This document shows positions 17,057-60,737 of a stretch of DNA of 64,000 bases, one piece after another. Each line of letters begins with the position of its first letter. The stretch's first letter is position 1. The DNA is from Candidatus Daviesbacteria bacterium (lineage in GTDB: Bacteria; Patescibacteriota; Microgenomatia; Daviesbacterales; UBA10151): the NCBI GenBank assembly GCA_016432425.1, contig CP066688.1, positions 84,368 to 148,367 on the forward strand, written 5' to 3'. The notes under the pieces were generated by a model. The model did not search any database. It saw only the letters and a program-made list of their open reading frames with translations, and was not told the DNA's origin. The translations under genes and the position numbers were made by a program.

Positions 17057-17102
17057 CCATTTTTCTGTTTTTTATGATATGATACAATCGTGAATTAAGT
17101 CA
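17057..17102. promoter_or_regulatory. Divergent promoter region with TATAAT-like elements (tatgatatgatacaat)
   Basis: The only non-coding gap between the minus operon ending at 17056 and the plus operon starting at 17103. AT-rich with -10-like hexamers. Confidence 0.25.
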
Positions 17103-18041
17103 ATGAATAATATGTTATCTTTTGTCATACCGGCGAAAAATGAACAGGATTCGCTAATACAATTATATCAAGAAATCTGTCTCACAGTAGCAACACTTAA
17201 AAGACCATTTGAAATTGTGTTCGTGGATGACGGTTCAACAGACGAAACTTTTCAGATCTTAAAATCACTACATGATAAAGATAAAAGAGTTAAAGTAGTA
17301 AAGTTAAGAGGTAATTGGGGGAAATCAATAGCGCTCCAAATAGGCTTTGGTAAAACCAAAGGTGATATTATTTTTACTCTGGATGGAGACTTGCAAGATA
17401 ATCCTCATACCATACCGGCATTTTTAAAAAAATTGGACGAAGGTTACGATCTGGTTTCGGGATGGAAGAAAAATAGACATGATCCCTCGCTCACTAAAGT
17501 CCTACCTTCAAGAATAGTTAATTCCTTGTCCAGAAGATTAACTGGAGTAAAAATTCACGATATTAATTGCGGATTTAAAGCTTACCGAAGAGAGGTAATT
17601 GAAAATTTAAACCTTTACGGAGAATTGTATCGTTTCATACCAATTATAGCTGCTAAACAAAATTACAAAGTAGGAGAAATTATTGTTGACCACAGACCCA
17701 GGATATATGGTAAAACTAAATTTGGCTGGAGCCGAGGAATCAAAGGAATTTTAGATCTTTTAACCATCGTCTTTTTAACAGGATTTAAAAATAGACCAGG
17801 TCATTTTTTTGGTTCGGCTGGTCTGATGTCATTTTCAGCTGGGTTTATAATAGGGGTGTATATTGCTTATCTGCGTCTTACTACAGGTAGTATTCAAAAT
17901 CGCCACCCTTTACTTTTTCTCGGGATGCTCTTAATGATTATTGGTGTTCAACTTATCTCTACTGGCCTTTTGGCAGAGATGATAATTTTTTCCAGGGAGA
18001 AATCAGATTATACTTTCTCTATTAAGGAATATTTAGCGTGA
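17103..18041 (+). CDS. Polyprenyl-phosphate sugar synthase, GtrB/ArnC/DPM1-like. GT2 catalytic domain plus two C-terminal TM helices.
   Basis: SFVIPAKNEQDSL...VFVDDGSTDET...LDGDLQD, followed by a C-terminal pair of TM helices as in GtrB/ArnC. Confidence 0.8.
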   Translation: MNNMLSFVIPAKNEQDSLIQLYQEICLTVATLKRPFEIVFVDDGSTDETFQILKSLHDKDKRVKVVKLRGNWGKSIALQIGFGKTKGDIIFTLDGDLQDNPHTIPAFLKKLDEGYDLVSGWKKNRHDPSLTKVLPSRIVNSLSRRLTGVKIHDINCGFKAYRREVIENLNLYGELYRFIPIIAAKQNYKVGEIIVDHRPRIYGKTKFGWSRGIKGILDLLTIVFLTGFKNRPGHFFGSAGLMSFSAGFIIGVYIAYLRLTTGSIQNRHPLLFLGMLLMIIGVQLISTGLLAEMIIFSREKSDYTFSIKEYLA

Positions 18042-18964: not shown

Positions 18965-19786
18965 ATGAAACTCCTGATTAAGTGTCCGATTTGCCAAACT
19001 AATAGCTGGCAAAAATATTCCCTTAAATTAGTTATTTGCAACAACTGCAGTTTTATTAGAGCCAAAGATACATATTTTAGAGTTAATGCCATCAAACTGT
19101 ATGGACAAGAATATTTTAATGAATCTGATTATGGGGATTATGCTCAAGAAGAAGAGGCCTTGGTAAAAAATTTTACTGACAGAGTCCGCAGAATCAGACA
19201 GTATAAAAAAAGCGGTAAGTTATTGGAAATAGGCTGTGCCTACGGTTATTTTTTAAAATTGGCCCAAAAATATTATCAATGCAGCGGTATTGATTTAAAT
19301 CCCGAAGTAACAAAGATTGCCCAAAAAACAACTAAGGCCAAAATTATAACCGGTGATTTTTTAAACTTAAACATACCAAAAAATTCTTTCGATATTGTTT
19401 GCATGTTTGACACCATCGAACATCTAAAATACCCTGCTCAGTACTTATCTAAAATCAGTCAAATACTAAAACCAAATGGAATTGTAGTTGTGGAAACTGG
19501 GGATATTGGCAGTTTCTTGGCTAAAATACAAGGCAATGGATGGAGGTTAATTACTCCCCCATTTCATCTGCAATATTTCAGCCAAAAAACATTAACTAGG
19601 TTATTTGAAAATTCTCAACTTTCAGTTATCGATGTTAATCGTGTTAGTTTCTACAGAAGCATCCGCCAGATCATTTATAAGTTAGCAAACAATAAACATG
19701 TTTTAGACTCCTCCCATCCGCTCTTATCCAAAACAATTCCTATTAATACTTATGACCTGTTATTTGTTGTTGCCCAAAAAAATTAA
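18965..19786 (+). CDS. Class I SAM-dependent methyltransferase with N-terminal Zn-ribbon
   Basis: CPICQT...CNNCSF, then LLEIGCAYGYF...DIVCMFDTIEHL...LKPNGIVVVE. Confidence 0.75.
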   Translation: MKLLIKCPICQTNSWQKYSLKLVICNNCSFIRAKDTYFRVNAIKLYGQEYFNESDYGDYAQEEEALVKNFTDRVRRIRQYKKSGKLLEIGCAYGYFLKLAQKYYQCSGIDLNPEVTKIAQKTTKAKIITGDFLNLNIPKNSFDIVCMFDTIEHLKYPAQYLSKISQILKPNGIVVVETGDIGSFLAKIQGNGWRLITPPFHLQYFSQKTLTRLFENSQLSVIDVNRVSFYRSIRQIIYKLANNKHVLDSSHPLLSKTIPINTYDLLFVVAQKN

Positions 19787-22204
19787 ACTGGCGGAAATTA
19801 GCTCTAAATCAACCGGGTAAGTTAAACAATCTATAGTGAGAGTTGGCTTATTTATACCCATTGCCGGCAGTATAACTGAATACGTATGAACAGAACCATC
19901 TATTTTAAGAAGTAAATTAACCATACCTTCACCAAACCCTGGACTCTGCCATTTTATACACGAATCTACCCCAAAAAAGGTGTAATTTTTTAAAACTTCT
20001 CTATCTGTCGGAGTCTCAATTGCACCGGCGGGGGAGTGGCGAATCTGGTCGATGGTATCCAAATTAATATCTGAATATCCCGTTGGAATAAAACTAATCT
20101 CCTCTACTAAAGGACTATCTCCCTCTGTTGATAAAATTTTAAGACTTAAGTTTTTGACTTTAGTATTTTTAAACAAAATCTTACTTTTACCATTAGAGTA
20201 TTCCAAGTTATAATCCACCTTTTTACCATCAGTGAAGACTTCAAAACTTTTTGGTATCCGGAATTTGGAACTGGCATAAATAATTACACCATCAATATCT
20301 GTTGGCTCTTTAAGTTTCAAGCTGATTACAGGTTTTATACCCTGAAACCAAGGACTACGTTCTGCTCTCCAGAAACTATTTAAATCAAAATCAATTAAGT
20401 TATTCGGGGTTGTTTCTGTATCGGAATTTGAAACCAAAATTTCCGTCGTTTGCTTAATTGATCTGGAAATTGTAATAGAATTTAAAACCTTTTTAAAAAG
20501 CATTGGGTCTTTTGTGCAATTAAAACAACTTTGAGTATATGGCAGTGGAATTTCCGGATCAGTAGCTTTTAAGATCAATGACAAATGGGTAGGCAAAATT
20601 GGCATAGTATCAAAGGTAAAACTGACTCCATTATTTTTACCGGTCCACATATTTTGGCTATTTTTTATAAATTGTGTTTTACTCGCTACATTCACCTCTG
20701 TAATTATTCCTTGGTGGTTTTGCAAAAAATCTCTTGCTTGGTTAGTAGTGTTAACTAATTTATCTCCATCCCAATAAAAGCTATAAAAAAATTGTCTATC
20801 GAACTTAGGATTATCATAATATCTGATTAAATCACTACTATCTGTCAGCAAGATTAAATTCTCCATCTTAATATTTAACTTAGTGGCTAAAGAAGACTGC
20901 GAAGGATGCATGCCAACTCTCACAAAATCACCCAGCTGAAGTTGTTTTTCCCCTCTGGGAGAGTCAATAAAAATAATGGCCCGATCAGGTTTAATTGGAA
21001 AAAAATCTCTTAATTGTTGATAAAAATGGCTTCTGGACCGATTGTCATTTTCAAAACTGCCAAAAAATTGATTTGTTTGTAATAAGTTCAAAATTAAAAC
21101 TCCTGTTAAAATAATCTGGCCAATTTTGAGATTTCGTAATGCCACCATCCCTAAAGCCAAAACAAAACCTATATAAGGATAGAATATATGCCTATCAGTA
21201 CTACCTAATCCAGTAGTCGTCACTAATCCTTTAGGTATGTATTGAGTAATTATCCAAAGAAAAGCAAAAATACCCAAGCCGAATATTTTTTTGTCTTTTC
21301 TATTGATCCAGATAAAGACAAGAAAAGCTATATTAATAATATAACCAGTCAACAATCTAATCTGGTCTGTATTTTTAATTTTAAAATCTATCCTCAGTTT
21401 ACTTTCGAGATAATCTGTTAGTACAAAAGAACCTGTTGTTTGAATAAAATTAGTAAACTTAAGTTTTATAAACTCTTCAGTAATTTTATGTCCTCCAGCT
21501 CTCTGCCAAAACTGCAACGCTTGCCCACTTTGCTTATATGGTACCCAAATGTAAGTAACAAGTGTAATTAATATAAAAAATGTTAACAAAATTAAGGTTA
21601 ATCTTTTAAAACGACTCCAAAAAAGATACAACGTAATTGGTAGGATGATTAAAATATGTCCTGTTGAATAAATAGGGAATATATATAGGGAGAGAAAAAA
21701 TAACAGACCACTAGCTATTAAATAAATTACCGATTTATTTTCATTAAAACGGTTGATTAGTAAAAGTATTAATAAAAGAAAAGATATGCCAATATTTTCC
21801 GAAATAGAGTAAAAAGAAAGAAGGCTATCTTCTCCCCCTACTGATACTATCAAACTGGCCAGTAGTAAACTTAAAATTTTGTTGCCAAATAGGTTTTTGC
21901 AAAGAAAGAAAGAAAAACAACCTAAAATAAATTTCAAAATAAAACCTAGGATAAAATAAGGTGCCGGATTAAAATTAAACAGCTGATAAAGGTTTTCAAA
22001 AACAGGGCAATAAGAATTAAAAGGCCAATTAAAAGGACAAATTTTATTGGCAGCATTATAAAGAATAGAAAAATCATCATGCCAGAAATAAAAGAAAAAA
22101 GTTTTATGGTAAGCTAAAAAAGTGATGAGGAATATTAAAAAAAGTGGTCCAGCTTGTTTAAAACACCATATTAAGTTGCGCTGACACAATACTTTTTTGA
22201 GCAT
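19760..22204 (-). CDS. GT-C (PMT/ArnT-like) membrane glycosyltransferase with C-terminal discoidin-like beta-sandwich
   Basis: Loop motif FWHDDFSILYNA. Polytopic. The C-terminus has ...FDLNSFWRAERSPW...IDGVIIYASS.... I used the start at MLKKVL (22204) because the longest ORF would overlap the divergent ChbG-like gene start by 18 nt. The start is uncertain. Confidence 0.6.
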   Translation of the reverse strand: MLKKVLCQRNLIWCFKQAGPLFLIFLITFLAYHKTFFFYFWHDDFSILYNAANKICPFNWPFNSYCPVFENLYQLFNFNPAPYFILGFILKFILGCFSFFLCKNLFGNKILSLLLASLIVSVGGEDSLLSFYSISENIGISFLLLILLLINRFNENKSVIYLIASGLLFFLSLYIFPIYSTGHILIILPITLYLFWSRFKRLTLILLTFFILITLVTYIWVPYKQSGQALQFWQRAGGHKITEEFIKLKFTNFIQTTGSFVLTDYLESKLRIDFKIKNTDQIRLLTGYIINIAFLVFIWINRKDKKIFGLGIFAFLWIITQYIPKGLVTTTGLGSTDRHIFYPYIGFVLALGMVALRNLKIGQIILTGVLILNLLQTNQFFGSFENDNRSRSHFYQQLRDFFPIKPDRAIIFIDSPRGEKQLQLGDFVRVGMHPSQSSLATKLNIKMENLILLTDSSDLIRYYDNPKFDRQFFYSFYWDGDKLVNTTNQARDFLQNHQGIITEVNVASKTQFIKNSQNMWTGKNNGVSFTFDTMPILPTHLSLILKATDPEIPLPYTQSCFNCTKDPMLFKKVLNSITISRSIKQTTEILVSNSDTETTPNNLIDFDLNSFWRAERSPWFQGIKPVISLKLKEPTDIDGVIIYASSKFRIPKSFEVFTDGKKVDYNLEYSNGKSKILFKNTKVKNLSLKILSTEGDSPLVEEISFIPTGYSDINLDTIDQIRHSPAGAIETPTDREVLKNYTFFGVDSCIKWQSPGFGEGMVNLLLKIDGSVHTYSVILPAMGINKPTLTIDCLTYPVDLELISASLIFLGNNK

Positions 22205-41303: not shown

Positions 41304-42680
41304 ATGAAGAACATACAAAAAGCAATAAAATCTTTCTCCCAAAAAAAGATCCTCGTCGTCGGTGATTTAATGCTAGATTTATATACCTATGGCACCGTTA
41401 ATCGTATATCCCCTGAAGCACCTGTACCAATTTTACTAAAAACTGACGAAAAATACTCACCTGGAGGCGCAGCCAATGTAGCTAATAATTTAAGGGGATT
41501 AGGAGCGGAAGTAGCTGTTTGTGGAATAGCAGGTGAGGATTCTAACGGGGAGAGATTATTGGTTTTATTAAATGAACTAGGCATTGATACCAAAGCAGTC
41601 ATTAAAACTCCAGATTTTCCGACTACATTAAAACAAAGATTAATCGCCGAAAATCGCCAAATAGTTAGGGTCGACGAAGAAAACATCCAAGAATTAAATC
41701 CTAAGGAGCAAAAAGATATTTTAACTTGGATAGAATTTTTAGTTGGTAAATACGATGCCATCATTTTGTCAGATTATGCCAAGGGTGTATTCACTAAAAA
41801 CTTAACATCTGAAATTATTAAATTAGCAAAAAAACATAATAAGTTGATAACTGCAGATATCAAACCTGTCAACAAATCGCTATTTAAAGGCGCCCATCTA
41901 ATTTTTCCGAATTTGAAAGAAGCAGAAGAAATGACCGGAGGTAACACCATTAATGAAATGGGGGCTCATCTAGTGAAATATTTTAACTGTGATGTAGTAA
42001 TCACTAAAGGAGCAGAAGGAATGGCAGTCTTTCAGCGCGACAACATTTATTTTGAGATACCTGGAAGAAAAATTGAAGTTTTTGATGTGAGTGGTGCAGG
42101 GGATACAGTAATAGCCGTTATTACGCTAGGTTTAATTAGTAATCTGAACCTCAACGACTCTGCCAATTTGGCAAATTTTGCAGGTAGTATCGTAGTACAA
42201 AAAGCTGGTACTGCCTCTATTAAGCTAGAAGAACTAGAGGCTTACATCAACATAGGTAAGTATCATATTGATAATGTTGAAATAGTACCAAAAGTTTGGG
42301 GGTATGAGAAATGGCTAGAAAATAATAGCCGGTATTGCTCTAAATTGCTTTTTTTAAAACAGGATTATCAATGTAGTTTGCACTATCATAAAGTTAAAGA
42401 TGAGCTATTTTTGGTCACCTCTGGACATGTCCGATTTGAACTGGGAAAAGAGATTATACATCTGATGCCTGGTAGTTTTATCAGAGTTCCTCCTAAAACT
42501 TTACACCGATATAGAGGAATTGTAGACTCAGAAATACTGGAAGTAAGTACTCACCATAGCGAAAAAGACTCCTACAGATTAGAACCCAGTAGAAAAATCG
42601 AAATAGACAATACTAAATCTTTTCATAAGGCTGTGATTGTTGACAGCAAGGCTATCATTCCAGATGAAAGTACACTTTAA
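41304..42680 (+). CDS. Fusion protein. N-terminal D-glycero-beta-D-manno-heptose-7-phosphate kinase (HldE domain I, PfkB family). C-terminal PMI-type-II-like cupin domain replacing the usual adenylyltransferase domain.
   Basis: Kinase domain: ILVVGDLMLDLYTYG..RISPEAPVP...GGAANVANN...DVSGAGDTVIAV. Cupin domain: WGYEKW...SLHYHKVKDELFLVTSGH...LMPGSFIRVPPKTLHRYRG...ILEVSTHHSEKDSYRLE. This aligns motif for motif with the AlgA/ManC C-terminal PMI cupin (WG..HHHR.EHW.VVSG...GES..IP.G..HRL.N.G...EV..G.Y..EDDI.R.ED). Confidence 0.8.
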   Translation: MKNIQKAIKSFSQKKILVVGDLMLDLYTYGTVNRISPEAPVPILLKTDEKYSPGGAANVANNLRGLGAEVAVCGIAGEDSNGERLLVLLNELGIDTKAVIKTPDFPTTLKQRLIAENRQIVRVDEENIQELNPKEQKDILTWIEFLVGKYDAIILSDYAKGVFTKNLTSEIIKLAKKHNKLITADIKPVNKSLFKGAHLIFPNLKEAEEMTGGNTINEMGAHLVKYFNCDVVITKGAEGMAVFQRDNIYFEIPGRKIEVFDVSGAGDTVIAVITLGLISNLNLNDSANLANFAGSIVVQKAGTASIKLEELEAYINIGKYHIDNVEIVPKVWGYEKWLENNSRYCSKLLFLKQDYQCSLHYHKVKDELFLVTSGHVRFELGKEIIHLMPGSFIRVPPKTLHRYRGIVDSEILEVSTHHSEKDSYRLEPSRKIEIDNTKSFHKAVIVDSKAIIPDESTL

Positions 42681-43239
42681 AACGCCCCAGAAAACCCTGG
42701 TCAAAGCTGTTTTCTTAGATCGCGATGGAACTATCAACAATAATCAAACGGGGTATACTTATAAAATTAACGATTTTGTCTGCCTACCAGGAGTCATAGA
42801 ATCATTAGTTAAGTTTTCAAAGACTTCCTACAAAATTATCATTCTTACTAACCAATCTGGAATAGGCAGAAAATATTTTAGTTTCTCTCAATTCCATAAA
42901 TTAAATAATTGGATGCTAAAAGAGTTTAAAAAAAATAATGTTAGAATAGATAAAGTTTTTTTCTGCCCTCATCATCCACAAAATAACTGCTCTTGCCGCA
43001 AACCAAAACCTGGTCTAATAATACAAGCTGTACAAACTTTTGGAATATCTTTAGAAGAAAGTTGGCTAATCGGGGATGACGAAAGGGATATTATTTTAGC
43101 CAAAACAGTTAACTTACGGTCAATTAAAATAGGCGCCAAGATAAGTAGAAAATTAAAGTTAGAGCCCAATTATTATGTAAAAAATTTGCCGGAAGCCTTG
43201 GATATAATTACCAATCAAGATAGACTAAGTTTGTTATAA
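42664..43239 (+). CDS. gmhB: D-glycero-D-manno-heptose 1,7-bisphosphate phosphatase (HAD-IIIA family)
   Basis: KAVFLDRDGTIN, ILTNQSGIGR, CxC RKPKPG, LIGDDERD. These are the GmhB/HisB-N family signatures. Start chosen at MKVHFK. Confidence 0.75.
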   Translation: MKVHFKTPQKTLVKAVFLDRDGTINNNQTGYTYKINDFVCLPGVIESLVKFSKTSYKIIILTNQSGIGRKYFSFSQFHKLNNWMLKEFKKNNVRIDKVFFCPHHPQNNCSCRKPKPGLIIQAVQTFGISLEESWLIGDDERDIILAKTVNLRSIKIGAKISRKLKLEPNYYVKNLPEALDIITNQDRLSLL

Positions 43240-44510
43240 GCATTTATATGAGCAAGCAAATCTTTCATATTATAAGTGGTCACATCAGTCATTTTAGGTT
43301 TCGGCAAACCCATTATTTTATACATGTACGGTAGAACCTCTTTAACCTTTAACTCTGACATACATAAATTATCTATACAGGGAGACCTCCTGGCATTATA
43401 AGTATTAATACAAGGATCACAAGCTAAACCTGCAGACAAAGAAACGTTTCTGGTACTTAAGGGGGCATATAATAAGGGAGTTTCCGGACCAAATAAAGAA
43501 ATTATATAAATTGGAGTCATGGCAGCAAAATGGGCCGGGCCGCTATCATTGGTTACCATTAAATGCGAGATGTTGTAAAGGGTAAGCAATTCATAAATAT
43601 CAGTTTGTCCGGCAAAATTTATACAAAGAGGGTGATTAATTTTATTTTCTACATCTTGAATATAATTAATCTCTTTGGCAGTTCCAATTAAAATAATTGC
43701 CGTGTTGCCTTGTTTTAATATTTCCTGAGCTAATTTAGCAAAATACTCTTTTGGCCATTTTCTTTCGGGAACAAAATCACTGGCATGAGTGTTAAAAATA
43801 ACTAACTTCATGGAAGGATTAATTTTCGGATTTAAAGATTGTATTTTCTTCCATAAATTTTCAATTTCATTTTTAGAAGATTTGTAGCGGGGTACCCTCA
43901 GGTTACCAGTTAATCTCTTTTTTAATAGAGGTATAGAATTAAATGGCTCTTTAATAGATTTTGCTAAAGTTAAAAAAGCTAAACTGGTATGTAAATAATG
44001 ATTATAGATTACCTTATGAGTAAAAAAATCTCCTCTATACAATCCTTCCATGTGGTATTTATAAAACCCAATATGGATGGGTGATTTTATCAAATAACCC
44101 AGTATAGCTGATATTCGAGAGAATAATTCAAAATCTACAATTACATCGATTTTTTGATCTCTTAACATTTTAGCTGCTTTCAAAGTATCAAATATCAAAT
44201 GGGGAATTGACGAATTATTAATTAAGTAGATATTTTTTTCTGGAAAAGATTTTAATATTTTAACAATCTCCTCATTTCCTGAGAATGTTAAAAAATACAA
44301 TTGCGCCTCTGGATATTCTTTTTTAATAAAATTAATTGCCGGGAAAGATAAAATTGTACTACCCATTTCCGAAATTTTAATAAATAAAATTTTTTTTATT
44401 TTCTTTGGCTCTCTTCTTCTTCTGGTAACTCTAGACCATTGGCTTAAAAACCAGCAAATTCTGGAACCGATAATTCTGTCTATATTTCTGACTCTATTAG
44501 GATCGATCAT
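43215..44510 (-). CDS. GT9 family glycosyltransferase (heptosyltransferase-like)
   Basis: ILFIKISEMGSTILSFPAI at the N-terminus. C-terminal VTNDSGPAHFAAMTPIYIISLFGP, which is the WaaC/WaaF-family signature. Confidence 0.75.
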   Translation of the reverse strand: MIDPNRVRNIDRIIGSRICWFLSQWSRVTRRRREPKKIKKILFIKISEMGSTILSFPAINFIKKEYPEAQLYFLTFSGNEEIVKILKSFPEKNIYLINNSSIPHLIFDTLKAAKMLRDQKIDVIVDFELFSRISAILGYLIKSPIHIGFYKYHMEGLYRGDFFTHKVIYNHYLHTSLAFLTLAKSIKEPFNSIPLLKKRLTGNLRVPRYKSSKNEIENLWKKIQSLNPKINPSMKLVIFNTHASDFVPERKWPKEYFAKLAQEILKQGNTAIILIGTAKEINYIQDVENKINHPLCINFAGQTDIYELLTLYNISHLMVTNDSGPAHFAAMTPIYIISLFGPETPLLYAPLSTRNVSLSAGLACDPCINTYNARRSPCIDNLCMSELKVKEVLPYMYKIMGLPKPKMTDVTTYNMKDLLAHINAYNKLSLS

Positions 44511-51662: not shown

Positions 51663-52528
51663 AATCTTTTTCCTGTTAAATATCGAAAATATGCCCTGGG
51701 AAAACGTAAGGCAGAAAAAAAAGAAAAGATTAGCCCTTGGAAACCGTCCAATATTCCTTTATGACGAAACAAAGTCAGTAAAAACCACCAGCTAGATTTA
51801 ATAAAATAAAAATTGATCAGCTGCCAGATATTTTTCCCCACCTTAGTTTTTTCAAGATCATCAGCAATTAAATTAATATAGCGGCTATTTCTTTTTAAAT
51901 ACCTTTCAAAAGTTGGGTCAGCCATATGATAAAGATCATTTTGCAGCCAGCCTACTTTACCATCAACCGTAATCTGCTCGTGAACATCAAGACAGGGGAA
52001 ATAAGCTTTATTTTTACGGACTAACCTAATCACTCCATCCGGATAAACTCCGCCATAGCGTAAATATTTCCCCAAGAAATAATTTAGACGGGGTATAAAA
52101 AAAGCAGCATATTCCTTTGAACTATCGCCAATGCGGCCATCCCGCTCTTCCAGTAATTTTTGATGCCTCAAAAAGAGTCTCCTATTTTTTAAATCTCGCT
52201 GGTAAATTTCCACCTCTTCATTTGTCATCTCAATTACCTTTCTTATTTCCTGTGCCAAAGCTTTAGAAACTCGCTCATCCGCATCAAGCTGTAAAATCCA
52301 TTCATTTTGAGCCAAATCCAGCGCCTTTTGTTTGTTGATATGAAAAATCGGCGGGTTGTCTTTGATTAAAACTTTGGCTCCAAAGGAGCGGGCAATCTCA
52401 ACTGTTTTGTCAGCAGAGCTTCCGTCTACAATCACAATCTCATCGGTAATTTCTTTAATAGAATTCAGACAAGCCGGCAGATTTTTTTCTTCGTTAAAAG
52501 TGGCCAGGACTACTGATAATTTTTTCAA
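51659..52528 (-). CDS. GT2 family glycosyltransferase
   Basis: LSVVLATFNEEKNL...IVDGSSADKT...QLDADE. Confidence 0.75.
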   Translation of the reverse strand: MKKLSVVLATFNEEKNLPACLNSIKEITDEIVIVDGSSADKTVEIARSFGAKVLIKDNPPIFHINKQKALDLAQNEWILQLDADERVSKALAQEIRKVIEMTNEEVEIYQRDLKNRRLFLRHQKLLEERDGRIGDSSKEYAAFFIPRLNYFLGKYLRYGGVYPDGVIRLVRKNKAYFPCLDVHEQITVDGKVGWLQNDLYHMADPTFERYLKRNSRYINLIADDLEKTKVGKNIWQLINFYFIKSSWWFLLTLFRHKGILDGFQGLIFSFFSALRFPRAYFRYLTGKRL

Positions 52529-54192
52529 AACTGCCCTCCTTCAATCATGACAAAAGCCGGCTCTCCGCTAGGAAAGTCTACCTGATCTAAGATTTTAACA
52601 TTTTTTGGGGATGCCTCACCTGACATGATAAATAAAGTTCCGGGTGAATTTAGCTCTGGCAGAGTTGCTTCATGAAATTCGTATTTGTCAAAAGACCTCA
52701 CCGTCCCAAAATTAAATTGATCCCGGGGAGAAAGTGCTGCTTGGGGCTGATACTTTCTGGGATCGTATTGTTTGTAAAATAACACCAAAATATAGGGCTG
52801 GTCGAAGCGGTCGGTAATTACTACTTTTTCGTATTTACTTTCATATTGATTTAATTTTTGAACCATTTCGGAAAATCCATATTCCCAAGCCAAAGGGTAT
52901 CTTTGAGGATAAATTATGTAATAAGACTGCATAAAACGAACAAATTCAAAAACCAATACAGTCGTAATTAACCCCACCCCTAAAATCCGCCAGTGACTTT
53001 TTAACCAATTAATAGTTTCCCCCATCCCCAACCCCATTATTAAGGTTAAAGGAACGACCAAATTAAGTGCCCGCAGGGCATGAGGAGTCTGGTAAGTCAT
53101 TGCTGAGGCCAGGGGAGCAACCAAAATCCAAATCAGCAGAATTTTTTTATGAGCGAATTGCTTTTTAATTACAGCTATTCCTCCCATTGTTAAAAACAAA
53201 AATTCAATTAAATAAAACTGGCCAACTTCGGGTACTTTATTGCGAATTAGCGGATCACCATTAATAAATAAAAAGCTACCGCTAAAATGGTCCAGGTAAT
53301 GGCCTAAAAATGCCGGAATAAAGGCAGTTAATTTATTGTGCAAAGAAACGCTTAATTTTGACTTAGGGTTCTCATGCTCTCCCCTGAGCTGCTGAATACG
53401 GGAAATAAGTCCTTGGTCAGAGAAAAAAGTGAGCCCGGTGAATCTGGCGCTACCGGTGCCGGAAAGAAATTGCCCGGTTAAAGGCAGCGTCAAAATTAGT
53501 AACAAAACTACTATAATAACCAGCTTAAATTTATATTTTAGTGAAGGGAACCTTCTTTCCTTTAAAAATAAAGATCGCACTGCTTTAATTAGCGGCTGAT
53601 AGTAAAAAATTAATAACATTAACCCCAATACCGGCACTATTAATCTGGGACTTTGGTAGGTATACATCGAAGCCAAAAACGAAATGAGACTAAATAAAAG
53701 TAAGCCATAATTTTTTAAACCTTTGATAAATAGTAATATACCCAAAGTGATAAAAAAGGTAGCTACATTAGTTTCCCAACCTCCCCGGGAAAATTGCAGG
53801 TGCCAGGGGGAAATCGCCAAAAGGAAGGCACTCCAGAGACCAAAAATTTTGTGTTGAAAAATTTCTCTGCCCAGAAGAAAAGTTAGATAAACAGTTAAAA
53901 TCCCCAAAAGGGCTGAAGGGAGCCTGACTGCCCATTCATTTAAACCAAAAAGGGCGACAAATGGCATGACCATATAAAAATACAGGCCTGGTTTCCAGTC
54001 TCCGAAGGATTTAAAAGTCAAAGGAAGAAAACTGCCATATTCATCCTTGCCGGTTTGCAAAAGTGAATAAGCATTGTAACCAATTGAAGCCTCGTCAGCA
54101 TTTAAACCGGCCGGAAAATTATTTAAAGCAACCAGCCGCAAAACTGCTGCCAAGACAATAATTAAAATTAGTATTATTTTTGGTTTAACCAT
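52525..54192 (-). CDS. GT-C glycosyltransferase, GT39/PMT_2 (ArnT-like) family, tandem paralog 1 of 5
   Basis: LNADEASIGYNAYSLLQTGKDEYGSFLP...PFVALFGLNEWAVRLPSA...ISPWHLQFSR. Confidence 0.75.
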   Translation of the reverse strand: MVKPKIILILIIVLAAVLRLVALNNFPAGLNADEASIGYNAYSLLQTGKDEYGSFLPLTFKSFGDWKPGLYFYMVMPFVALFGLNEWAVRLPSALLGILTVYLTFLLGREIFQHKIFGLWSAFLLAISPWHLQFSRGGWETNVATFFITLGILLFIKGLKNYGLLLFSLISFLASMYTYQSPRLIVPVLGLMLLIFYYQPLIKAVRSLFLKERRFPSLKYKFKLVIIVVLLLILTLPLTGQFLSGTGSARFTGLTFFSDQGLISRIQQLRGEHENPKSKLSVSLHNKLTAFIPAFLGHYLDHFSGSFLFINGDPLIRNKVPEVGQFYLIEFLFLTMGGIAVIKKQFAHKKILLIWILVAPLASAMTYQTPHALRALNLVVPLTLIMGLGMGETINWLKSHWRILGVGLITTVLVFEFVRFMQSYYIIYPQRYPLAWEYGFSEMVQKLNQYESKYEKVVITDRFDQPYILVLFYKQYDPRKYQPQAALSPRDQFNFGTVRSFDKYEFHEATLPELNSPGTLFIMSGEASPKNVKILDQVDFPSGEPAFVMIEGGQF

Positions 54193-55825
54193 CTCCTCTT
54201 TCCACTAATTTAAAGACTTCTTCTCCATTTAGAAATTTAACTCTATTTAAAATATTAAATTCTTTAAACGGCACAATATCTTTATCCGGCAGCTCATCCG
54301 GACTGCCCACAAATAAAGTATTTTTTAGATTTCGATCGGCCGGCCAATAAAGATGACGGAATTCTATCTTGCCGATTTTTTTGACCGTCCCAACATCACT
54401 ACCAAATTGATCCAAATTGTATTGGCCTTGGAAATTTAATCTGTCAGGATTGTAGAATAAATAATAAATATAAGGTTGCCCGTAAACGTCAGTGACTATA
54501 ATTTTTGGATAATTATTTTGAATTTTGTAGACTTGTTCAAATGTTTGCTTGTATCCATACAACCAATAGTTAGAATATTCAACAGGAGCATGCACAAAAT
54601 AACGGTCTAAATAAATAATAAAATTGGAAAGCATGACAACTATGACAACTCCATAAACTAAAGACCGCCAACTTACCCTTAACCTATTGATTAGAGTTAA
54701 TAAATAATACAGCCCGGCCGCTTCCAATATAACATAAGGGACTACCATGTTCAGGGCCCGTAAAATGCTAATCAAATCCCGCGATAATACAGCTGGCAGA
54801 GGTGCTATTAAAAGCCAACCAAATATTAAACCCACTCCCTTTTGATTTTTAAGCAAATGGAATATTCCCAGCGGAATCAATAAGGCACTATAATAGTAAA
54901 AAAATCCCAAGTCCGGAATCCGATGTCTTTCTTCTAAAGTTCCTTTGACAAATAAGGTGGATGGGGAAAAGTAAATGGAATATCGCTCCACAAGTCCCCG
55001 GGCATAACTCCACCACTCTCCATATAGAATTTGAAACTGGGCACTGTTAGCAGGTAACTTACTCTCTAAAGAGAGTTTTTGAATTTCATTCTGAGAACGC
55101 TGATAAGCAAAAAAATTAAAAGTTTTAAGTCTTGTTGCCTGGCCGCTAAAAAGAGTTACCATTAGTAGCAATAAAAAGACTGTTATTACCACAGCTGCCG
55201 GCATTAAACTACGCCAGCGAATTTGACGATAACTGGTTATTACCAAAAGTAGGATAAACAGTGGGACAAACAAACGGGATGCTTGATAAGTAAATAAGGA
55301 TAAACCAAAAATTAAGGCAGAAAAGATGAGCAGTTTTCTGCTCTTTAATCCCTTTAAAAACAAATATGCCCCCAATACATTCATGGTTAAAGCTGCATTT
55401 GCCTCAAAGGCAGCCCGGGAAAATTGCAGGTGCCAGGGGGAAATCGCCAAAGTAAAACTGGCTAACAAACCCAGAGTTTTGTTTTGCAAGAGTTCTTTAA
55501 CCAAAGAAAAAATCAACCAGACTAAGGCTACCCCCAAGATGGCTGAAGGGAGCCTGACTGCCCATTCATTTAAACCAAAGAGGGCGACAAAGGGAACTGT
55601 CAAATAAATATAAGCTGCCGGTTTCCAGTCACCAAAAGATTTTAAGTTGTCAGGTAAGAAATTACCATATTCATCACGGCCAGTTTGGGAAATATCATAA
55701 GCATTAACTCCAATTGAGGCCTCATCCCAAGTCAGCCCCGGAGGATTGGAATTAAGTTGCCAAAATCGCAGTACTACACTGAGTAAAATAATTAGCACTA
55801 AAGAGTATTTTTTAACTAGTTCCAC
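54185..55825 (-). CDS. GT-C glycosyltransferase, GT39/PMT_2 family, tandem paralog 2 of 5
   Basis: LTWDEASIGVNAYDISQTGRDEYGNFLP...PFVALFGLNEWAVRLPSAILGVALVWLIFSLVK. Confidence 0.75.
   Translation of the reverse strand: MELVKKYSLVLIILLSVVLRFWQLNSNPPGLTWDEASIGVNAYDISQTGRDEYGNFLPDNLKSFGDWKPAAYIYLTVPFVALFGLNEWAVRLPSAILGVALVWLIFSLVKELLQNKTLGLLASFTLAISPWHLQFSRAAFEANAALTMNVLGAYLFLKGLKSRKLLIFSALIFGLSLFTYQASRLFVPLFILLLVITSYRQIRWRSLMPAAVVITVFLLLLMVTLFSGQATRLKTFNFFAYQRSQNEIQKLSLESKLPANSAQFQILYGEWWSYARGLVERYSIYFSPSTLFVKGTLEERHRIPDLGFFYYYSALLIPLGIFHLLKNQKGVGLIFGWLLIAPLPAVLSRDLISILRALNMVVPYVILEAAGLYYLLTLINRLRVSWRSLVYGVVIVVMLSNFIIYLDRYFVHAPVEYSNYWLYGYKQTFEQVYKIQNNYPKIIVTDVYGQPYIYYLFYNPDRLNFQGQYNLDQFGSDVGTVKKIGKIEFRHLYWPADRNLKNTLFVGSPDELPDKDIVPFKEFNILNRVKFLNGEEVFKLVERGDG
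55496..55615. repeat. 120-nt tract identical to 57126..57245, inside adjacent tandem PMT_2 paralogs (gene-conversion tract)
   Basis: Read directly from the sequence: tttaaccaaagaaaaaatcaaccagactaaggctacccccaagatggctgaagggagcctgactgcccattcatttaaaccaaagagggcgacaaagggaactgtcaaataaatataagc occurs twice. A 38-nt identical tract also links paralogs 1 and 2, at 53784..53821 and 55413..55450. Confidence 0.85.
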
Positions 55826-55841
55826 TATCTAATTGTACAAA

Positions 55842-57449
55842 TTACAGCTCGACGATATCAAATGCCGGATCTCCATTTAAAAATTTAATTTGTTGCAAGA
55901 GTTTTCCTTGATCAAAATTAGTCGGGCTGGTAATTAATAAACACCGCTCAGTTTCTTTACAGTTAGCTTTTTGTTTAACTTCCCAATCGTTAAGGAAGTA
56001 ATATTTGCTGAAACGGTCCACCCAATACCAATCACTACGGAAGTATCTAATTAAATTTGGATCGCTCAAATATTTTGCAGGATCGTATGGCAGATAAAAT
56101 AACAAAAACTCGTGCGGCTCACCGTAAGCTTTAGTCAGGTAAATTTTATGATAATTACTACCTTCTTTTTTAATAAACTCGACTGCTTCTTTATACCCAT
56201 ACTGCCAGGCCCAAGAATAGTTTTTTCTATAACTACCGCTGTAATTTTGCCAAAAGAGGACCAAACTAATTAACAAACCAGCAATTATAATTAAGTTTAA
56301 CCCAATTTTAAATCGGGAAGCCTGGTTGGCTAATCCGGCAACGGCATAAGCACTAATAAATGCTAAAGGTACAGTGGCGGTGAGGCTCCGCAAAGCATGG
56401 GGGGCATCCCGGGTCACCGCTGCCGGAATAAAAGAAAAAAAGAGCCACATTAAAGTAATCCACTGCCATTTTTTTCTTTCTTTTAAAAACAAAAAAACAC
56501 CATAGATTAAAAAAGGTAAGAGCAATGGATAAACCAACCCTATTCCCGGAATACTGAATTGAAAATTAGAGCCACCGTTTAAAAAAAGAAAATTAGGGTG
56601 AAAATGACTAAAATAATTTTGTATTACCTGGGGGATAAAATAAGTTACTTTGTTGTAGACCAAAGTTACGGCAGGAGGGGGCAAAGCAGAACTTCCCCGC
56701 AATTCATTAATCTGATTAATTGCACCTTGGTCTAAAATCGTGGTCCATTTATATCGGGCAGAGGAATCTTGCAACAAAGCCTTAGGCAAAGCCAGTGCAA
56801 AAAAAGTCAAAAAAATAACTAATGACATAACAGTAATTTTTTTATATTTTGCCAGTTGCGGATAATGAATTAACCCTAAACTTAAAACTAGCAGTGGAAT
56901 AATGATCCGGCTGCTATTGTAAGAAAAAATGGTTAAACCAAAAGTAATGGCACTAAACACTAAAAAGTATTTACTCTTTACACCTCTCACAAAAAAATAT
57001 ACCCCTAAAGTAGTTAAAAAAAGTGATAGCTGAGCCTCCAGAGCAATTCGGGATAAAATAATTGGCCAGGGCAGGACAGCAGCTACAAAAGCGGCCCAAA
57101 GAGCGGTTTTTTCTTCGCTCCATTGTTTAACCAAAGAAAAAATCAACCAGACTAAGGCTACCCCCAAGATGGCTGAAGGGAGCCTGACTGCCCATTCATT
57201 TAAACCAAAGAGGGCGACAAAGGGAACTGTCAAATAAATATAAGCCGGCAGTTTATAATCGCCATAAATTCTAAAAGTTAAAGGCATAAACTCTCCCCAT
57301 TCATCCCGTCCGGTTCTTAAAATTGAAGCAGCATTATATCCAATAGAAACTTCATCCCAATTTAATGAAGGCGGCAGCTGTGGTAGCTGCCAAAACCGCA
57401 ACACGGCAGCCAAAATTACAATCATGATTAACAATAATTTTGCTCTCAT
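55842..57449 (-). CDS. GT-C glycosyltransferase, GT39/PMT_2 family, tandem paralog 3 of 5
   Basis: LNWDEVSIGYNAASILRTGRDEWGEFMP...PFVALFGLNEWAVRLPSAILGVALVWLIFSLVK. Confidence 0.75.
   Translation of the reverse strand: MRAKLLLIMIVILAAVLRFWQLPQLPPSLNWDEVSIGYNAASILRTGRDEWGEFMPLTFRIYGDYKLPAYIYLTVPFVALFGLNEWAVRLPSAILGVALVWLIFSLVKQWSEEKTALWAAFVAAVLPWPIILSRIALEAQLSLFLTTLGVYFFVRGVKSKYFLVFSAITFGLTIFSYNSSRIIIPLLVLSLGLIHYPQLAKYKKITVMSLVIFLTFFALALPKALLQDSSARYKWTTILDQGAINQINELRGSSALPPPAVTLVYNKVTYFIPQVIQNYFSHFHPNFLFLNGGSNFQFSIPGIGLVYPLLLPFLIYGVFLFLKERKKWQWITLMWLFFSFIPAAVTRDAPHALRSLTATVPLAFISAYAVAGLANQASRFKIGLNLIIIAGLLISLVLFWQNYSGSYRKNYSWAWQYGYKEAVEFIKKEGSNYHKIYLTKAYGEPHEFLLFYLPYDPAKYLSDPNLIRYFRSDWYWVDRFSKYYFLNDWEVKQKANCKETERCLLITSPTNFDQGKLLQQIKFLNGDPAFDIVEL
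57126..57245. repeat. Second copy of the 120-nt identical tract (partner of 55496..55615)
   Basis: Read directly from the sequence. Confidence 0.85.
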
Positions 57450-59086
57450 TGATTAGTGGGTACTAAACGATACAATATCTTGCCGGAAGGTGAATAAACA
57501 TCCAAAATTGACTGAACCTGAGAGGGAAAATCTTCCGGCTCTGAAACTATCAAGGCATCTTTCCTGAGACTGTCTTTTTTGCGCCAATCTATTCCCTCAA
57601 AATAAAAATTGCCCAAATTCCAACTCTCCAGCTGATCTACATATAATTTATTGGATTTTTCATATCTTAACCAATTCGGGGAAGATTTTTGAAAAACTTT
57701 GGGGTCCATTTTCTCGTAAAAAGCGACAAATATTTGCGGTTCAGTAAAATGTTTAGAGATAACAATCTGGCTGTAGCGATCCTTCACAGATAAAATTTTT
57801 TCAAAGACTGTATCATAACCAAAACGCACATTATCAATTGGTCGTTGAGGTAATTTAATAAAGTAAAAGTGTAAGAAAAAAATAAACTGGGTAAACAGTA
57901 TCACTGTGACAATTCTTCCCCATGGTAAATTGGCAAATTTAGTCTTTAGGTAATCAATTAGACTAGCTGCACCAATCGCCGATATTATAACGGTTAGAGG
58001 GAGAAATGTCGGCACCCGATTAGCATTCAGACTTCCGGTAGCCAAAGCTGCACCTACTGGAGAGACTAAAAACCACCAAATTATTATTTCTTTATTAGCT
58101 AGTTTTTTAAAGAAAATTTCCTTAATAGCAAATATCCAAAAAATAAGCTCTACTGTATAAAGCAGCGCAAACCTGGGAAAATTTAAATAGGTGTTATCCG
58201 GCCTTCCTCCGGTAAAAAAGAAAGTAGGAGAAAAATAAGACAGGTAATTTTCTGTTAAATTATTTTTGATAAATAAAAATTTATTGTCAAAAATTTTATC
58301 TAATAAAGGAGGCAGTGGAGAAGTACCTTTGGATTTAAAATAACTCATGATTTGTTCACTGCTAAAAATTCCTACATCGGAAGCTCTGGTGGAAATGTTT
58401 CCCCAATTAATAAGGAGGGGGGATAAGAAAATAAAAAGACCCAAACTTAAATAAATAATTCGCTTTTTAGATTCTGCCCGCAGAAAAAATGCACCTAATA
58501 TAAACAATACCAGCAAGACTCGAAAAGAGTGGTAGGTATAAAAAGTTAACCCCCAAAATATAATGGTGGGAAGAAAAAATTTGTTTTCTTTTTTTAATTT
58601 TAGAAAAAATAATAACCCCAAACTGAAAGTTAAAATTCCTAATCCACCTTCCCAGGCAGTACGGGAAATTTGTATAGACCAGGGGGAAATAGCCAGCAAA
58701 AATGCTGCCCACAAAGCAATATTTTCTTTTTGGAAAAGTTCCTTAGTTAAAAAATATGCTACCAAAACAGTGAGTATGCCTACCAGGGCAGCAGGTAACC
58801 TGACCGAGACCATGTTCAAATCAAAAATGAGTAGCGAGGGAACTGTTAAATAAGTATAAAGAGGCGGCTTAAAATCTCCAAACCCCCGAGGATTAATCGG
58901 TAAAGTTTCTCCCCATTCATCCTTGCCGGTTTGCAAAAGCGAATAAGCGCTGTAACCTTGTTGAGCTTCATCACCGGTAAAACCATTGGGGAATTTATCC
59001 AAACTAATTAGTCTGACAGCTGCAGCTAAAATAATTATTAACAATAAGATAATTTTACTCGTAGAGAAGATTTGCTTAATTTTCAT
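57446..59086 (-). CDS. GT-C glycosyltransferase, GT39/PMT_2 family, tandem paralog 4 of 5
   Basis: FTGDEAQQGYSAYSLLQTGKDEWGETLP...ISPWSIQISR. Confidence 0.75.
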   Translation of the reverse strand: MKIKQIFSTSKIILLLIIILAAAVRLISLDKFPNGFTGDEAQQGYSAYSLLQTGKDEWGETLPINPRGFGDFKPPLYTYLTVPSLLIFDLNMVSVRLPAALVGILTVLVAYFLTKELFQKENIALWAAFLLAISPWSIQISRTAWEGGLGILTFSLGLLFFLKLKKENKFFLPTIIFWGLTFYTYHSFRVLLVLFILGAFFLRAESKKRIIYLSLGLFIFLSPLLINWGNISTRASDVGIFSSEQIMSYFKSKGTSPLPPLLDKIFDNKFLFIKNNLTENYLSYFSPTFFFTGGRPDNTYLNFPRFALLYTVELIFWIFAIKEIFFKKLANKEIIIWWFLVSPVGAALATGSLNANRVPTFLPLTVIISAIGAASLIDYLKTKFANLPWGRIVTVILFTQFIFFLHFYFIKLPQRPIDNVRFGYDTVFEKILSVKDRYSQIVISKHFTEPQIFVAFYEKMDPKVFQKSSPNWLRYEKSNKLYVDQLESWNLGNFYFEGIDWRKKDSLRKDALIVSEPEDFPSQVQSILDVYSPSGKILYRLVPTNQ

Positions 59087-60737
59087 TTGGATTAGCCGTT
59101 ACTAAATAAAAAATTACTTCCCCGCTGGGGGAGCGAATTGTCTTTACTAATCTCAAATTAGGGTTATCTAAAATTTTAGGATTAGTAACATCCTCTCTAC
59201 TGGAAGCCAGGAAAAGCTGTCCATTTTTTAAATTATTTTCAAATGGTCCAGCGAACTTTCCAAAATAATATTTTTTCTCTAAAGCAAATCCGTCAAAATT
59301 AGTAGTAATATCTTGAATAACTTTATCACCGGAAAATTGCTGATGAAATTTATTGGGATCATATTTCGTCCAAAATAAAAACCTAATTAAAGATGGCTCA
59401 TAACTATTATTAATATAAATTTGGGAGTATTGGTCCTCCTTTGCAGCTAAGTATTGCATTGGCTCTTTAAATCCAAAATTCCATGCCCTCCACGACTCTT
59501 TAGGGTAATGTTCAAAATAGCGATGCAGGAAAAAGGTAAAATTCACTATTCCTAAAATAATTAGACCCAATGCCAAATACCTTCTGAAAGATCCCTGATT
59601 TATTTTAGCAAGTAAATCATTTATCCCCCAGCCAATTAAAATAGACAACGGTGCCAACATTAAAAAATTCCTGGTAGCATGGAATCCCCCATCAAAAGTT
59701 AAAGCTGCCGGGATGGGGGAAATTAGTAGCCAACCAAATACCACCCATTTTTCTTTTTCTTTTTTATACAATAGAAACCAAATCCCCGCTATTAATGGAA
59801 TTAATTCATAAAAGTAAAATTGCCCCATTCCATGGACAGATTGGCGGAAATTAGGATCTCCATTTAAAAATAAAAACTCCGGAGAAAAAGCCCGTAAATA
59901 ATTTAAGGTAAACACTTGCAAATAAACCACTGGTTTATTGTGAAACACTTTTTCCAGATTGAAAGGGAGATTTTCATTTTGCTGGGCGAGTTGGACTTGA
60001 TCTTTTAATGATTGTTCGGAAAAAATACTAATTAAATTAAATCTTGCTCCGGCAGTTCCCGAAAGCCAATTACTTCCATAAGGAGCTAGTACTACCAAAA
60101 ATATTAGACCTGCCAAAAGATATTTGGGGAGGTTTTTAAATAATTCATTTCGATAAAGATAAACTAGCATTAGCACCAGTAGCGGCATGAATAAAGTAGC
60201 CGTACTATAAATATAAGGCGTTAAAGCAAATAATATGGCTGAAAAATAAAACCAGAGGTAATTTTTGACTCCCTTAAGAAAAAGAAAAGTTGCCCAAATT
60301 AAAAATGCCAGCAGCATGGTAACTTCAAAACCGGCCCGGGAAAAATGTATGTGCCAGGGAGAAATAGTAAGGATTAGGGCGGCGAATAGTCCTATTTTCT
60401 CACCAAATAAATGTTTTGCTAAGAAGAATAATCCTCCAATACCTAAAATCCCCCAGAACGCGGCTGGAATTCGCACTCCCCATTCGTTTAAACCAAAAAG
60501 TCCAATTGTGGGCACAGCTGAATATAAAAATAGAGGCGCCCGATATTCTGACAGAGAATGGAAAAATACCGGCAATTTTTGGCCGTACAGATCTTGCCCT
60601 GTTTTTAAAATGGAATAAGCCTGGTAACCTACGTCCAGTTCATCTCCAAACAGCTCAACCGGCACTTTATCCAGTTGATAAACCCGCAGGGTGATAGCCA
60701 GGATTAAACTTACAAGTAACAGGAAATATTTTTTCAA
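59076..60737 (-). CDS. GT-C glycosyltransferase, GT39/PMT_2 family, tandem paralog 5 of 5
   Basis: LFGDELDVGYQAYSILKTGQDLYGQKLP...GLFGLNEWGVRIPAA...ISPWHIHFSR. Confidence 0.75.
   Translation of the reverse strand: MKKYFLLLVSLILAITLRVYQLDKVPVELFGDELDVGYQAYSILKTGQDLYGQKLPVFFHSLSEYRAPLFLYSAVPTIGLFGLNEWGVRIPAAFWGILGIGGLFFLAKHLFGEKIGLFAALILTISPWHIHFSRAGFEVTMLLAFLIWATFLFLKGVKNYLWFYFSAILFALTPYIYSTATLFMPLLVLMLVYLYRNELFKNLPKYLLAGLIFLVVLAPYGSNWLSGTAGARFNLISIFSEQSLKDQVQLAQQNENLPFNLEKVFHNKPVVYLQVFTLNYLRAFSPEFLFLNGDPNFRQSVHGMGQFYFYELIPLIAGIWFLLYKKEKEKWVVFGWLLISPIPAALTFDGGFHATRNFLMLAPLSILIGWGINDLLAKINQGSFRRYLALGLIILGIVNFTFFLHRYFEHYPKESWRAWNFGFKEPMQYLAAKEDQYSQIYINNSYEPSLIRFLFWTKYDPNKFHQQFSGDKVIQDITTNFDGFALEKKYYFGKFAGPFENNLKNGQLFLASSREDVTNPKILDNPNLRLVKTIRSPSGEVIFYLVTANPNEN

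Follow-up and report, generated by a model that had tools for sequence, protein, structure and literature searches.

ADP-heptose is synthesised by a textbook four-enzyme pathway that is a target for antibiotics; the product is recognised by ALPK1 as an agonist of innate immunity. In the bifunctional enzyme HldE of E. coli, the heptose-7-phosphate kinase is joined to a cytidylyltransferase-fold adenylyltransferase (CTP_transf_like), and the isomerase of the pathway is GmhA, a protein of the Rossmann-like SIS fold. We have analysed a stretch of 64,000 nucleotides from Candidatus Daviesbacteria bacterium (contig CP066688.1, positions 84,368 to 148,367; hereafter, the window), in which a gene at 41304..42680 on the plus strand encodes an HldA-type heptose-7-phosphate kinase fused to a cupin of the phosphomannose isomerase (PMI) type. 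We judge, with a probability of about 0.65 and from comparisons of sequence, that this cupin is a non-orthologous sedoheptulose-7-phosphate isomerase replacing the SIS-fold GmhA.

Several described systems resemble one or the other part of this protein. The type II PMI cupin at the C-terminus of ManC/AlgA is the same kind of single-barrel metal cupin, and is likewise fused to another enzyme of its own sugar-nucleotide pathway; its partner is an NTP_transferase, whereas the window cupin is joined to a PfkB kinase and its proposed substrate has seven carbons. The archaeal cupin-type phosphoglucose isomerases (cPGI, PF06560; Verhees 2001 and Hansen 2005, as cited in PMC7304191) and the small Thermococcus PMIs (7zvy and 7zvm) are only ~22% identical to the window cupin and, unlike it, are stand-alone enzymes of central metabolism with no link to heptose genes. 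A cupin-type phosphoglucose isomerase has been noted in some genomes of the candidate phyla radiation (CPR) (PMC7304191), which provides a precedent for cupin isomerases in these bacteria. The D-lyxose/D-mannose isomerases (PF07385; 7nzo, 3kmh, and 2y0o) are also metal cupins, catalyse a manno-specific aldose–ketose isomerisation, and share 24–26% identity with the window cupin, but they act on unphosphorylated sugars, are ~180–220 amino acids (aa) long, and have no link to heptose genes. With GmhA itself, the window cupin shares the proposed reaction and the place in ADP-heptose clusters, where the slot is filled by either SIS or cupin, but no kinship in sequence or fold (Rossmann-like SIS versus β-barrel cupin), and at least one genome, probably with a second, has both.

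Two commentaries (PMC11461863 and PMC11573728) credit Tang et al. (Science 2024) with heptose nucleotidyltransferases of one, two, or three domains, some of them isomerase/kinase/nucleotidyltransferase fusions, and one describes the underlying cross-kingdom survey as an intersection of the homologues of four known enzyme types: isomerase, kinase, phosphatase, and nucleotidyltransferase (PMC11461863). These accounts make no mention of a cupin isomerase. The protein described here would likewise combine an isomerase function and a heptose kinase in one polypeptide. Homology screens seeded with or requiring GmhA would miss cupin-based cassettes. The isomerase domain of the tridomain enzymes is reportedly GmhA-like (SIS). 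Full-text literature searches for a cupin-type heptose or sedoheptulose-7-phosphate isomerase returned nothing relevant. An earlier note on this DNA, made from the letters alone, had called the kinase–cupin architecture undescribed; this holds for the literature searched, but the architecture is common in sequence databases, where it goes under generic names.

A heptose kinase fused to a PMI-type cupin

The open reading frame (ORF) of the fusion starts at an ATG one base past the stop of an upstream PMT_2 gene (ending at 41302) and encodes 458 aa plus a stop; a TTG at 41274, ahead of that stop, would leave the frame open as well. An identical 458-aa database protein (P0001) is named 'MAG: cupin domain-containing protein [Candidatus Daviesbacteria bacterium]', and the G+C content of the window, 30–39%, is consistent with a CPR (Patescibacteria) genome. 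The product is composed of a PfkB-fold kinase domain of the HldA/HldE domain I type (aa 1–316; 41304..42251, plus strand), a cupin domain proposed to be a metal-dependent sedoheptulose-7-phosphate isomerase (aa ~326–432; 42279..42599, plus strand), and a C-terminal tail (aa 436–458; 42609..42677, plus strand). The tail is predicted to be disordered (predicted local distance difference test score, pLDDT, <50) and is lineage-specific, being found in a 30-sequence alignment only in the closest relatives (P0002–P0004). The AlphaFold2 model of the full-length fusion showed a mean pLDDT of 89.4 with both domains confident, and the AlphaFold model of the cupin domain alone a pLDDT of 93.5.

The kinase half was matched by Pfam PfkB at aa 14–305 (E = 6e-46) and by NCBIfam TIGR02198 (rfaE_dom_I) from end to end, with aa 8–315 aligned on model positions 2–314 of 315 and a score of 340.4 bits, 5 bits under the equivalog cut-off of 345. 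The motifs RISPEAPVP, GGAANVA, and DVSGAGDT are all present and lie in invariant columns of the 30-sequence alignment, the invariant kinase residues including G54 and G55 (GGAAN), N203/E206 (NxxE), and D261–T268 (DVSGAGDT). The PfkB fold, the full-length TIGR02198 match, the GAGD and NxxE motifs, and the linkage to gmhB and a glycosyltransferase family 9 (GT9) gene are shared with HldA and HldE domain I, from which the fusion kinase differs in its score just below the cut-off and in its host, a CPR bacterium not expected to make lipopolysaccharide (LPS). At the place of the adenylyltransferase of bifunctional HldE stands the cupin: the Pfam scan of the fusion protein found neither a CTP_transf_like or other adenylyltransferase domain nor a SIS or SIS_2 domain, and the HldE model NF008454 was matched over positions 3–313 of 475 only, corresponding to the kinase half. 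The assignment to heptose-7-phosphate kinases of the HldE domain-I/HldA type, made in the earlier note, is supported, and its claim that the second domain is not that of HldE is borne out. Judging from the domain identity, the catalytic motifs, and the near-cut-off equivalog score, the kinase domain would phosphorylate O1 of D,D-heptose-7-phosphate.

In the cupin half, Pfam detected Cupin_2 at aa 356–405 (E = 2e-8) and the C-terminal MannoseP_isomer domain PF01050 at aa 328–425, with 26.0 bits, above the gathering score of 23.6; PF01050 is also carried by most homologues listed. Lyx_isomer (PF07385) gave a weak Pfam match in the window protein, as it did in many family members. Four putative metal ligands, H360 (42381–42383), H362 (42387–42389), E367 (42402–42404), and H401 (42504–42506), all encoded on the plus strand, are invariant and align with the H-x-H...E...H of the Thermococcus PMI 7zvy; the first ligand is His in the window cupin and Gln in PMIs. 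Further invariant polar residues of the cupin are K330, E335, E339, N340, N341, K347, Q356, K365, D366, E379, R402, E413, H418, D422, and R425, and the mean pairwise identity in the same alignment is higher for the cupin half (69%) than for the kinase half (49%). The blocks WG-x-E/Y, S-L-x-x-H, H-R, and the terminal D-x-x-R line up with those of ManC sequences. Against the GMP/PMI (ManC) model TIGR01479 as a whole, the fusion protein reached 17 bits, the NCBIfam cut-off being 373, and neither Pfam nor NCBIfam found an NTP_transferase (mannose-1-phosphate guanylyltransferase) domain in it. With PF01050 above its gathering score and the metal ligands invariant, the C-terminal domain is a PMI-type (type II) cupin, as had been proposed from the letters.

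Structural comparison pointed in the same direction. The best Foldseek matches were the small Thermococcus PMIs 7zvy and 7zvm (TM-score, 0.75–0.82), with D-lyxose isomerases also scoring high, and the structural neighbours of highest sequence identity (23–26%) were TkPMI, D-lyxose isomerases, and L-ribose isomerase, all of which are aldose–ketose isomerases. Sequence searches of the Protein Data Bank with the cupin gave only generic and functionally uninformative cupin-motif matches, headed by quercetinase YxaG, and no close solved structure. Together, the modelled fold and the family matches favour a manno-type isomerase, short of proof.

The same family names can be read in another way, namely that the cupin is an ordinary PMI or an RmlC/FdtA-type nucleotide-sugar enzyme and that the fusion reflects loose co-regulation of glycan synthesis. 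The named matches, PF01050 and TIGR01479 (GMP/PMI, ManC), would fit with this, as would the position of the gene in a large glycosylation island with several epimerase/dehydratase genes of the short-chain dehydrogenase/reductase (SDR) type. However, identity to characterised PMIs is only ~22%, and RmlC (PF00908) and FdtA (PF05523) were unmatched at E ≤ 0.01 in the Pfam scan. RmlC-type epimerases are not known to have the His/Glu metal site that is conserved here. Moreover, the linkage of the cupin is repeatedly and specifically to HldA, HldC, GmhB, and HldD, as detailed below, and not to mannose-1-phosphate guanylyltransferase or phosphomannomutase, and we regard this explanation as the least probable of those considered.

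RmlC-, FdtA-, and AraC-type readings of the cupin were rejected on the lack of a model match, the AraC_binding match lying below its cut-off, and on the conserved metal site; no RmlC, FdtA, or transcription-factor cupin model outscored the PMI and lyxose-isomerase models.

Distribution of the cupin and its operon contexts

The architecture PfkB + Cupin_2 (+ PF01050) is common to all of the best 120 clusters at 90% identity (45–66% identical to the window protein), and the names on these clusters, where given, are Paceibacterota, Patescibacteria, and the like. Database names of the family are generic, such as 'cupin domain-containing', 'PfkB family carbohydrate kinase', 'quercetin dioxygenase-like', 'mannose-6-phosphate isomerase-like', and 'rfaE bifunctional protein kinase chain/domain'. 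In a profile search with the full-length alignment, ordinary HldA/HldE loci dominated through DVSGAGDT, with the fusion of locus L001 alone among the matches listed, and these ordinary loci were reused as the baseline set for the comparisons with SIS GmhA given below. A search with the cupin only, against 1.8 billion cluster representatives, gave 1,034 matches at E ≤ 1e-10, many of the best 150 of which are stand-alone proteins of 110–150 aa.

Pfam scans of the longer cupin matches revealed further fusions. The order cupin–PfkB occurs in P0142, P0145, P0164, and P0176; PfkB–CTP_transf_like–cupin (HldE–cupin) in P0156, which would be a three-function analogue of the tridomain enzymes of Tang et al. 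as described in the commentaries; CTP_transf_like–cupin (HldC–cupin) in P0161 and at L085 5998–6822; and cupin–HAD phosphatase (GmhB-like) in P0131. The cupin is thus found on four different enzymes and in either order, as is typical for an enzyme of a pathway but not for a domain regulating a single step; that its partners span all other classes of ADP-heptose enzyme, in varying order, supports a pathway isomerase. In locus L085, the cupin on the HldC-like domain (274 aa) is a second copy and lies next to a GT9 gene, and the locus also has a kinase–cupin fusion and an HldC–GmhB fusion.

In CPR genomes, a recurrent operon contains the fusion, an HldC–GmhB fusion (~335 aa), an HldD-like SDR, and GT9 (L081, L083, L086, L087, L094, and L095), partial versions of which are found on short CPR contigs; a GT9 gene is present in 12 of the 24 fusion-bearing loci counted. 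The CPR adenylyltransferase (CTP_transf_like) is joined to the GmhB phosphatase and not, as in E. coli HldE, to the kinase; examples of this CTP_transf_like–GmhB fusion are encoded at L081 11293–12294, L083 11307–12317, L085 11289–12299, and L086 11314–12384, and a 774-aa open frame at L098 5976–8297 appears to add a GT9 domain to adenylyltransferase–GmhB. Genes for substrate supply also occur beside the fusion. Transketolase- and transaldolase-type enzymes produce sedoheptulose-7-phosphate, and split transketolase genes adjoin the fusion in L001 (8334–10005), L084, and L085 (17040–18699); the L001 cluster also holds a transaldolase (19451–20206), and RpiB, Rpe, and GAPDH lie alongside the transketolase and the fusion in L084 (6043–9985).

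Stand-alone cupins from metagenomes adjoin PfkB, CTP_transf_like, and SDR genes, whose best NCBIfam matches are rfaE_dom_I, rfaE_dom_II, and heptose_epim, respectively. The stand-alone orthologues from DPANN archaea are 66–79% identical within their group; those of L021 and L133 are 48–50% identical to the window domain over 105 aa (E = 1e-35 to 1e-39) and keep the same invariant motifs. On a 322-kb Woesearchaeota contig (L133), the genes follow the order cupin (118 aa)–SDR–PfkB–HAD–CTP_transf_like–GT2 with overlapping stops and starts, which reads as an ADP-heptose operon (cupin–HldD–HldA–GmhB–HldC) headed by the cupin, an arrangement present on at least 24 contigs, and the archaeal locus L021 has cupin–HldD–HldA–HldC with a kinase scoring 362.9 bits against TIGR02198, above the cut-off. 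In sequence terms, the ADP-heptose cassettes with a cupin contain a recognisable enzyme for each step but the first and have one extra conserved component, the cupin.

Short PfkB kinases of ~250–265 aa are found beside some stand-alone cupins (L105 1110–1886, L114 502–1284, L119 1742–2536, and L126 418–1164). Their match to the HldA model is split in two, as though an internal segment had been lost, and GmhB was not detected beside them in these four loci.

These contexts also bear on the possibility that the cupin has no catalytic role but binds a ligand and thereby regulates the kinase or the pathway, ADP-heptose or a sugar phosphate exerting feedback, for instance, with GmhA encoded elsewhere. 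Cupins are often sensor domains, and AraC_binding was weakly matched by Pfam (19 bits, under the cut-off); in addition, SIS GmhA-like genes are frequent in CPR, and many bacteria have gmhA and hldE at separate sites, gmhA having been found nearby in only 13 of the 78 non-cupin loci. Against a regulatory role stand the invariant metal site and ~25 invariant polar residues in a domain more conserved than the catalytic kinase, the operons in which the cupin is a gene of its own, placed first and translationally coupled, and the variety of its fusion partners. We consider such a role very unlikely.

The cupin versus SIS GmhA, and the proposed pathway

Among loci in which HldA, HldC, and GmhB are clustered, a SIS GmhA is present in 4/4 of those without the cupin and in 0/14 of those with it (Fisher p = 3e-4), the numbers being small and the loci not phylogenetically independent. 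Cassettes that are complete but for GmhA, with the isomerase slot filled by either cupin or SIS, support the cupin as a replacement of GmhA, and the isomerase reading is further supported by the intact metal site, the conservation exceeding that of the kinase, the isomerase-like family matches, and the substrate-supply genes.

Several observations weigh against the cupin being an isomerase that takes the place of GmhA. Pac13 and KdgF match the cupin in fold as well as PMI does, fold matches among small cupins being barely discriminating. Two copies of the cupin in one locus (L085) are odd for a single isomerase step. The window and locus L131 have no HldC nearby, and the local pathway is incomplete as seen. 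When all HldA loci of at least 6 kb are compared, SIS GmhA occurs in 12/70 without the cupin and 1/29 with it, a difference that is not significant (p = 0.10). SIS GmhA-like genes are, moreover, common in CPR of the Parcubacteria type (1,528 matches), and at least one fusion-bearing genome, probably with a second, has such a gene as well. In the 1/29 exception (L092), a SIS_2 protein lies 5.5 kb from the fusion within a GHMP kinase/SIS/NTP_transferase trio (14874–17240); its family is highly conserved in CPR, with 72–91% identity over the 120 clusters listed of the 1,528 matches. The probable second case is the pairing of the fusion P0064 with the SIS gene P0338, for which the sole basis is that the longest contig of both clusters is 47,267 bp.

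Because of the SIS gene in L092 and the probable P0064/P0338 pairing, cupin and SIS are not strictly exclusive at the genome level, and the cupin is not strictly a substitute. A trio of GHMP kinase (HddA), SIS, and NTP_transferase (HddC) is the gene set of the GDP-α-heptose route. There are known cases in which each heptose module has its own isomerase; Campylobacter jejuni has two gmhA copies. The GT9 gene of L092 encodes a 790-aa fusion with a Glyco_trans_1_2 domain.

From the observed domains, metal-site conservation, fusions, and operon contexts, we infer the isomerase activity, its substrate, the stereochemistry of its product, and the acceptor of the following pathway. The cupin would bind a divalent metal through H360, H362, E367, and H401 and, by analogy with PMI (fructose-6-phosphate/mannose-6-phosphate) and cPGI, would isomerise sedoheptulose-7-phosphate (C1/C2) to D-glycero-D-manno-heptose-7-phosphate through a metal-stabilised cis-enediol. 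The fused PfkB domain would then phosphorylate O1 to yield heptose-1,7-bisphosphate, trapping the isomerase product; in this way, the fusion may channel a thermodynamically disfavoured intermediate. The adjacent GmhB would remove the 7-phosphate, HldC, encoded next door in relatives but not found near the window gene, would activate the sugar, and HldD would complete the synthesis. Finally, GT9 would transfer the heptose onto a cell-surface glycan or glycoprotein of the CPR bacterium.

Within the same pathway, the cupin could instead be an isomerase or epimerase with a different reaction or product, such as a PGI-like enzyme giving D-glycero-D-gluco-heptose-7-phosphate, an enzyme interconverting manno and gluco forms, or one that opens the ring or anomerises the sugar to give the β-anomer for HldA. 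Its best family matches are, however, manno-specific isomerases (PF01050 and Lyx_isomer), with no Pfam match of the fusion protein to cPGI (PF06560), the downstream enzymes score as ordinary HldA, HldC, HldD, and GT9, and the otherwise complete cassettes would still be without their first step. A different reaction appears to us improbable.

The reading preferred here, a cupin-type sedoheptulose-7-phosphate isomerase joined to its kinase, had been put forward in the earlier note, and the fusions, the operons, and the clustered loci (4/4 versus 0/14) now support it strongly. The argument from the absence of gmhA from the 64 kb is weak on its own, because the obligatory HldC is absent from the same stretch.

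The surrounding glycosylation island and the meaning of the family

Directly downstream of the fusion, as had been noted, lie gmhB and a GT9 gene, both matched by family models. The gmhB gene, for a heptose 1,7-bisphosphate 7-phosphatase of the HAD-IIIA type (42637..43239, plus strand; likely ATG at 42664), overlaps the 3' end of the fusion; its product scored 176 bits against NF006506 (cut-off, 178), 141.9 against TIGR00213, and 303 bits with a local GmhB hidden Markov model (HMM), and its translation shows the DRDGT and C-x-H...C-x-C motifs. The GT9 heptosyltransferase gene (43215..44510, minus strand) is convergent with gmhB and matches PF01075 (E = 7e-22) and, with 99.9 bits, below the cut-off, the heptosyltransferase II model TIGR02195. 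It is an 'LPS heptosyltransferase' in an organism that, being a CPR bacterium, is not expected to synthesise LPS. In agreement with the earlier statement that no SIS-family GmhA is present, none was found in the 64 kb by Pfam scans of the ORFs or by a GmhA HMM on all six-frame ORFs of at least 50 aa; this HMM, which was seeded from E. coli, does pick up 13 GmhA genes in other loci, and the SIS protein of CPR as well. Pfam scans and an HldC HMM, applied to six-frame ORFs of at least 50 aa, likewise found no HldC or other nucleotidyltransferase in the 64 kb. In the ~10 kb to the left (L129), which hold only glycosylation genes, neither HldC nor GmhA was found, and a 7.3-kb contig on the right adds little sequence past the window end; overall, no HldC was found within ~74 kb.

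The layout of locus L131 (P0003) is that of the window, with GT9, fusion, and GmhB only (GmhB at L131 11466–12047). Most relatives, including the closest (L132), have the HldC–GmhB fusion, unlike the stand-alone GmhB of the window, and in L132 a 355-aa ORF without a Pfam match (11307–12374) lies between the kinase–cupin fusion and the HldC–GmhB gene.

Judged by the Pfam domains of its ORFs, the entire window forms a single large glycosylation island, which continues to the left in L129. It contains many GT2 and GT4 enzymes, at least nine PMT_2/GT-C proteins, at least ten S-adenosylmethionine methyltransferases, SDR epimerase/dehydratases, a flippase-like protein, LPG_synthase_TM proteins, a GT-C AftD-like protein, and a carbamoyltransferase. 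Scanning the window for tRNA genes and for Rfam families gave no match. Five consecutive paralogous genes for proteins of ~535–555 aa, on the minus strand at 52525–60737, suggest that GT-C glycosyltransferases have expanded in tandem, with PMT_2/PMT domains shown for three of the five (window 52525–54192 and the counterparts of L130 3737–5398 and 5388–7028). Two further proteins, encoded at 2312–4402 (696 aa) and 6041–8731 (896 aa) and embedded among the glycosyltransferases, carry at the C-terminus an F5/8 type C (discoidin, galactose-binding-like) domain, the only one recognised in them.

Taken more broadly, and on the same comparative grounds, it is rather more probable than its contrary that an unrecognised family of cupin-fold sedoheptulose-7-phosphate isomerases replaces SIS GmhA, fused in CPR and stand-alone in DPANN, and that GmhA-independent nucleotide-heptose synthesis is widespread in both groups. 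The pathway and the class of cupin sugar-phosphate isomerases were already known; what would be new are the family, its substrate, and the architecture. If the proposal is true, EC 5.3.1.28 would gain a second enzyme family, analogous to the first, the predicted synthesis of heptose would extend to many CPR and DPANN genomes, and hundreds of annotations reading 'cupin domain-containing', 'quercetin dioxygenase-like', or 'PfkB family carbohydrate kinase' would be corrected. The proposal also raises the question of which role a heptose glycan may play on the surface of episymbiotic, LPS-free cells.

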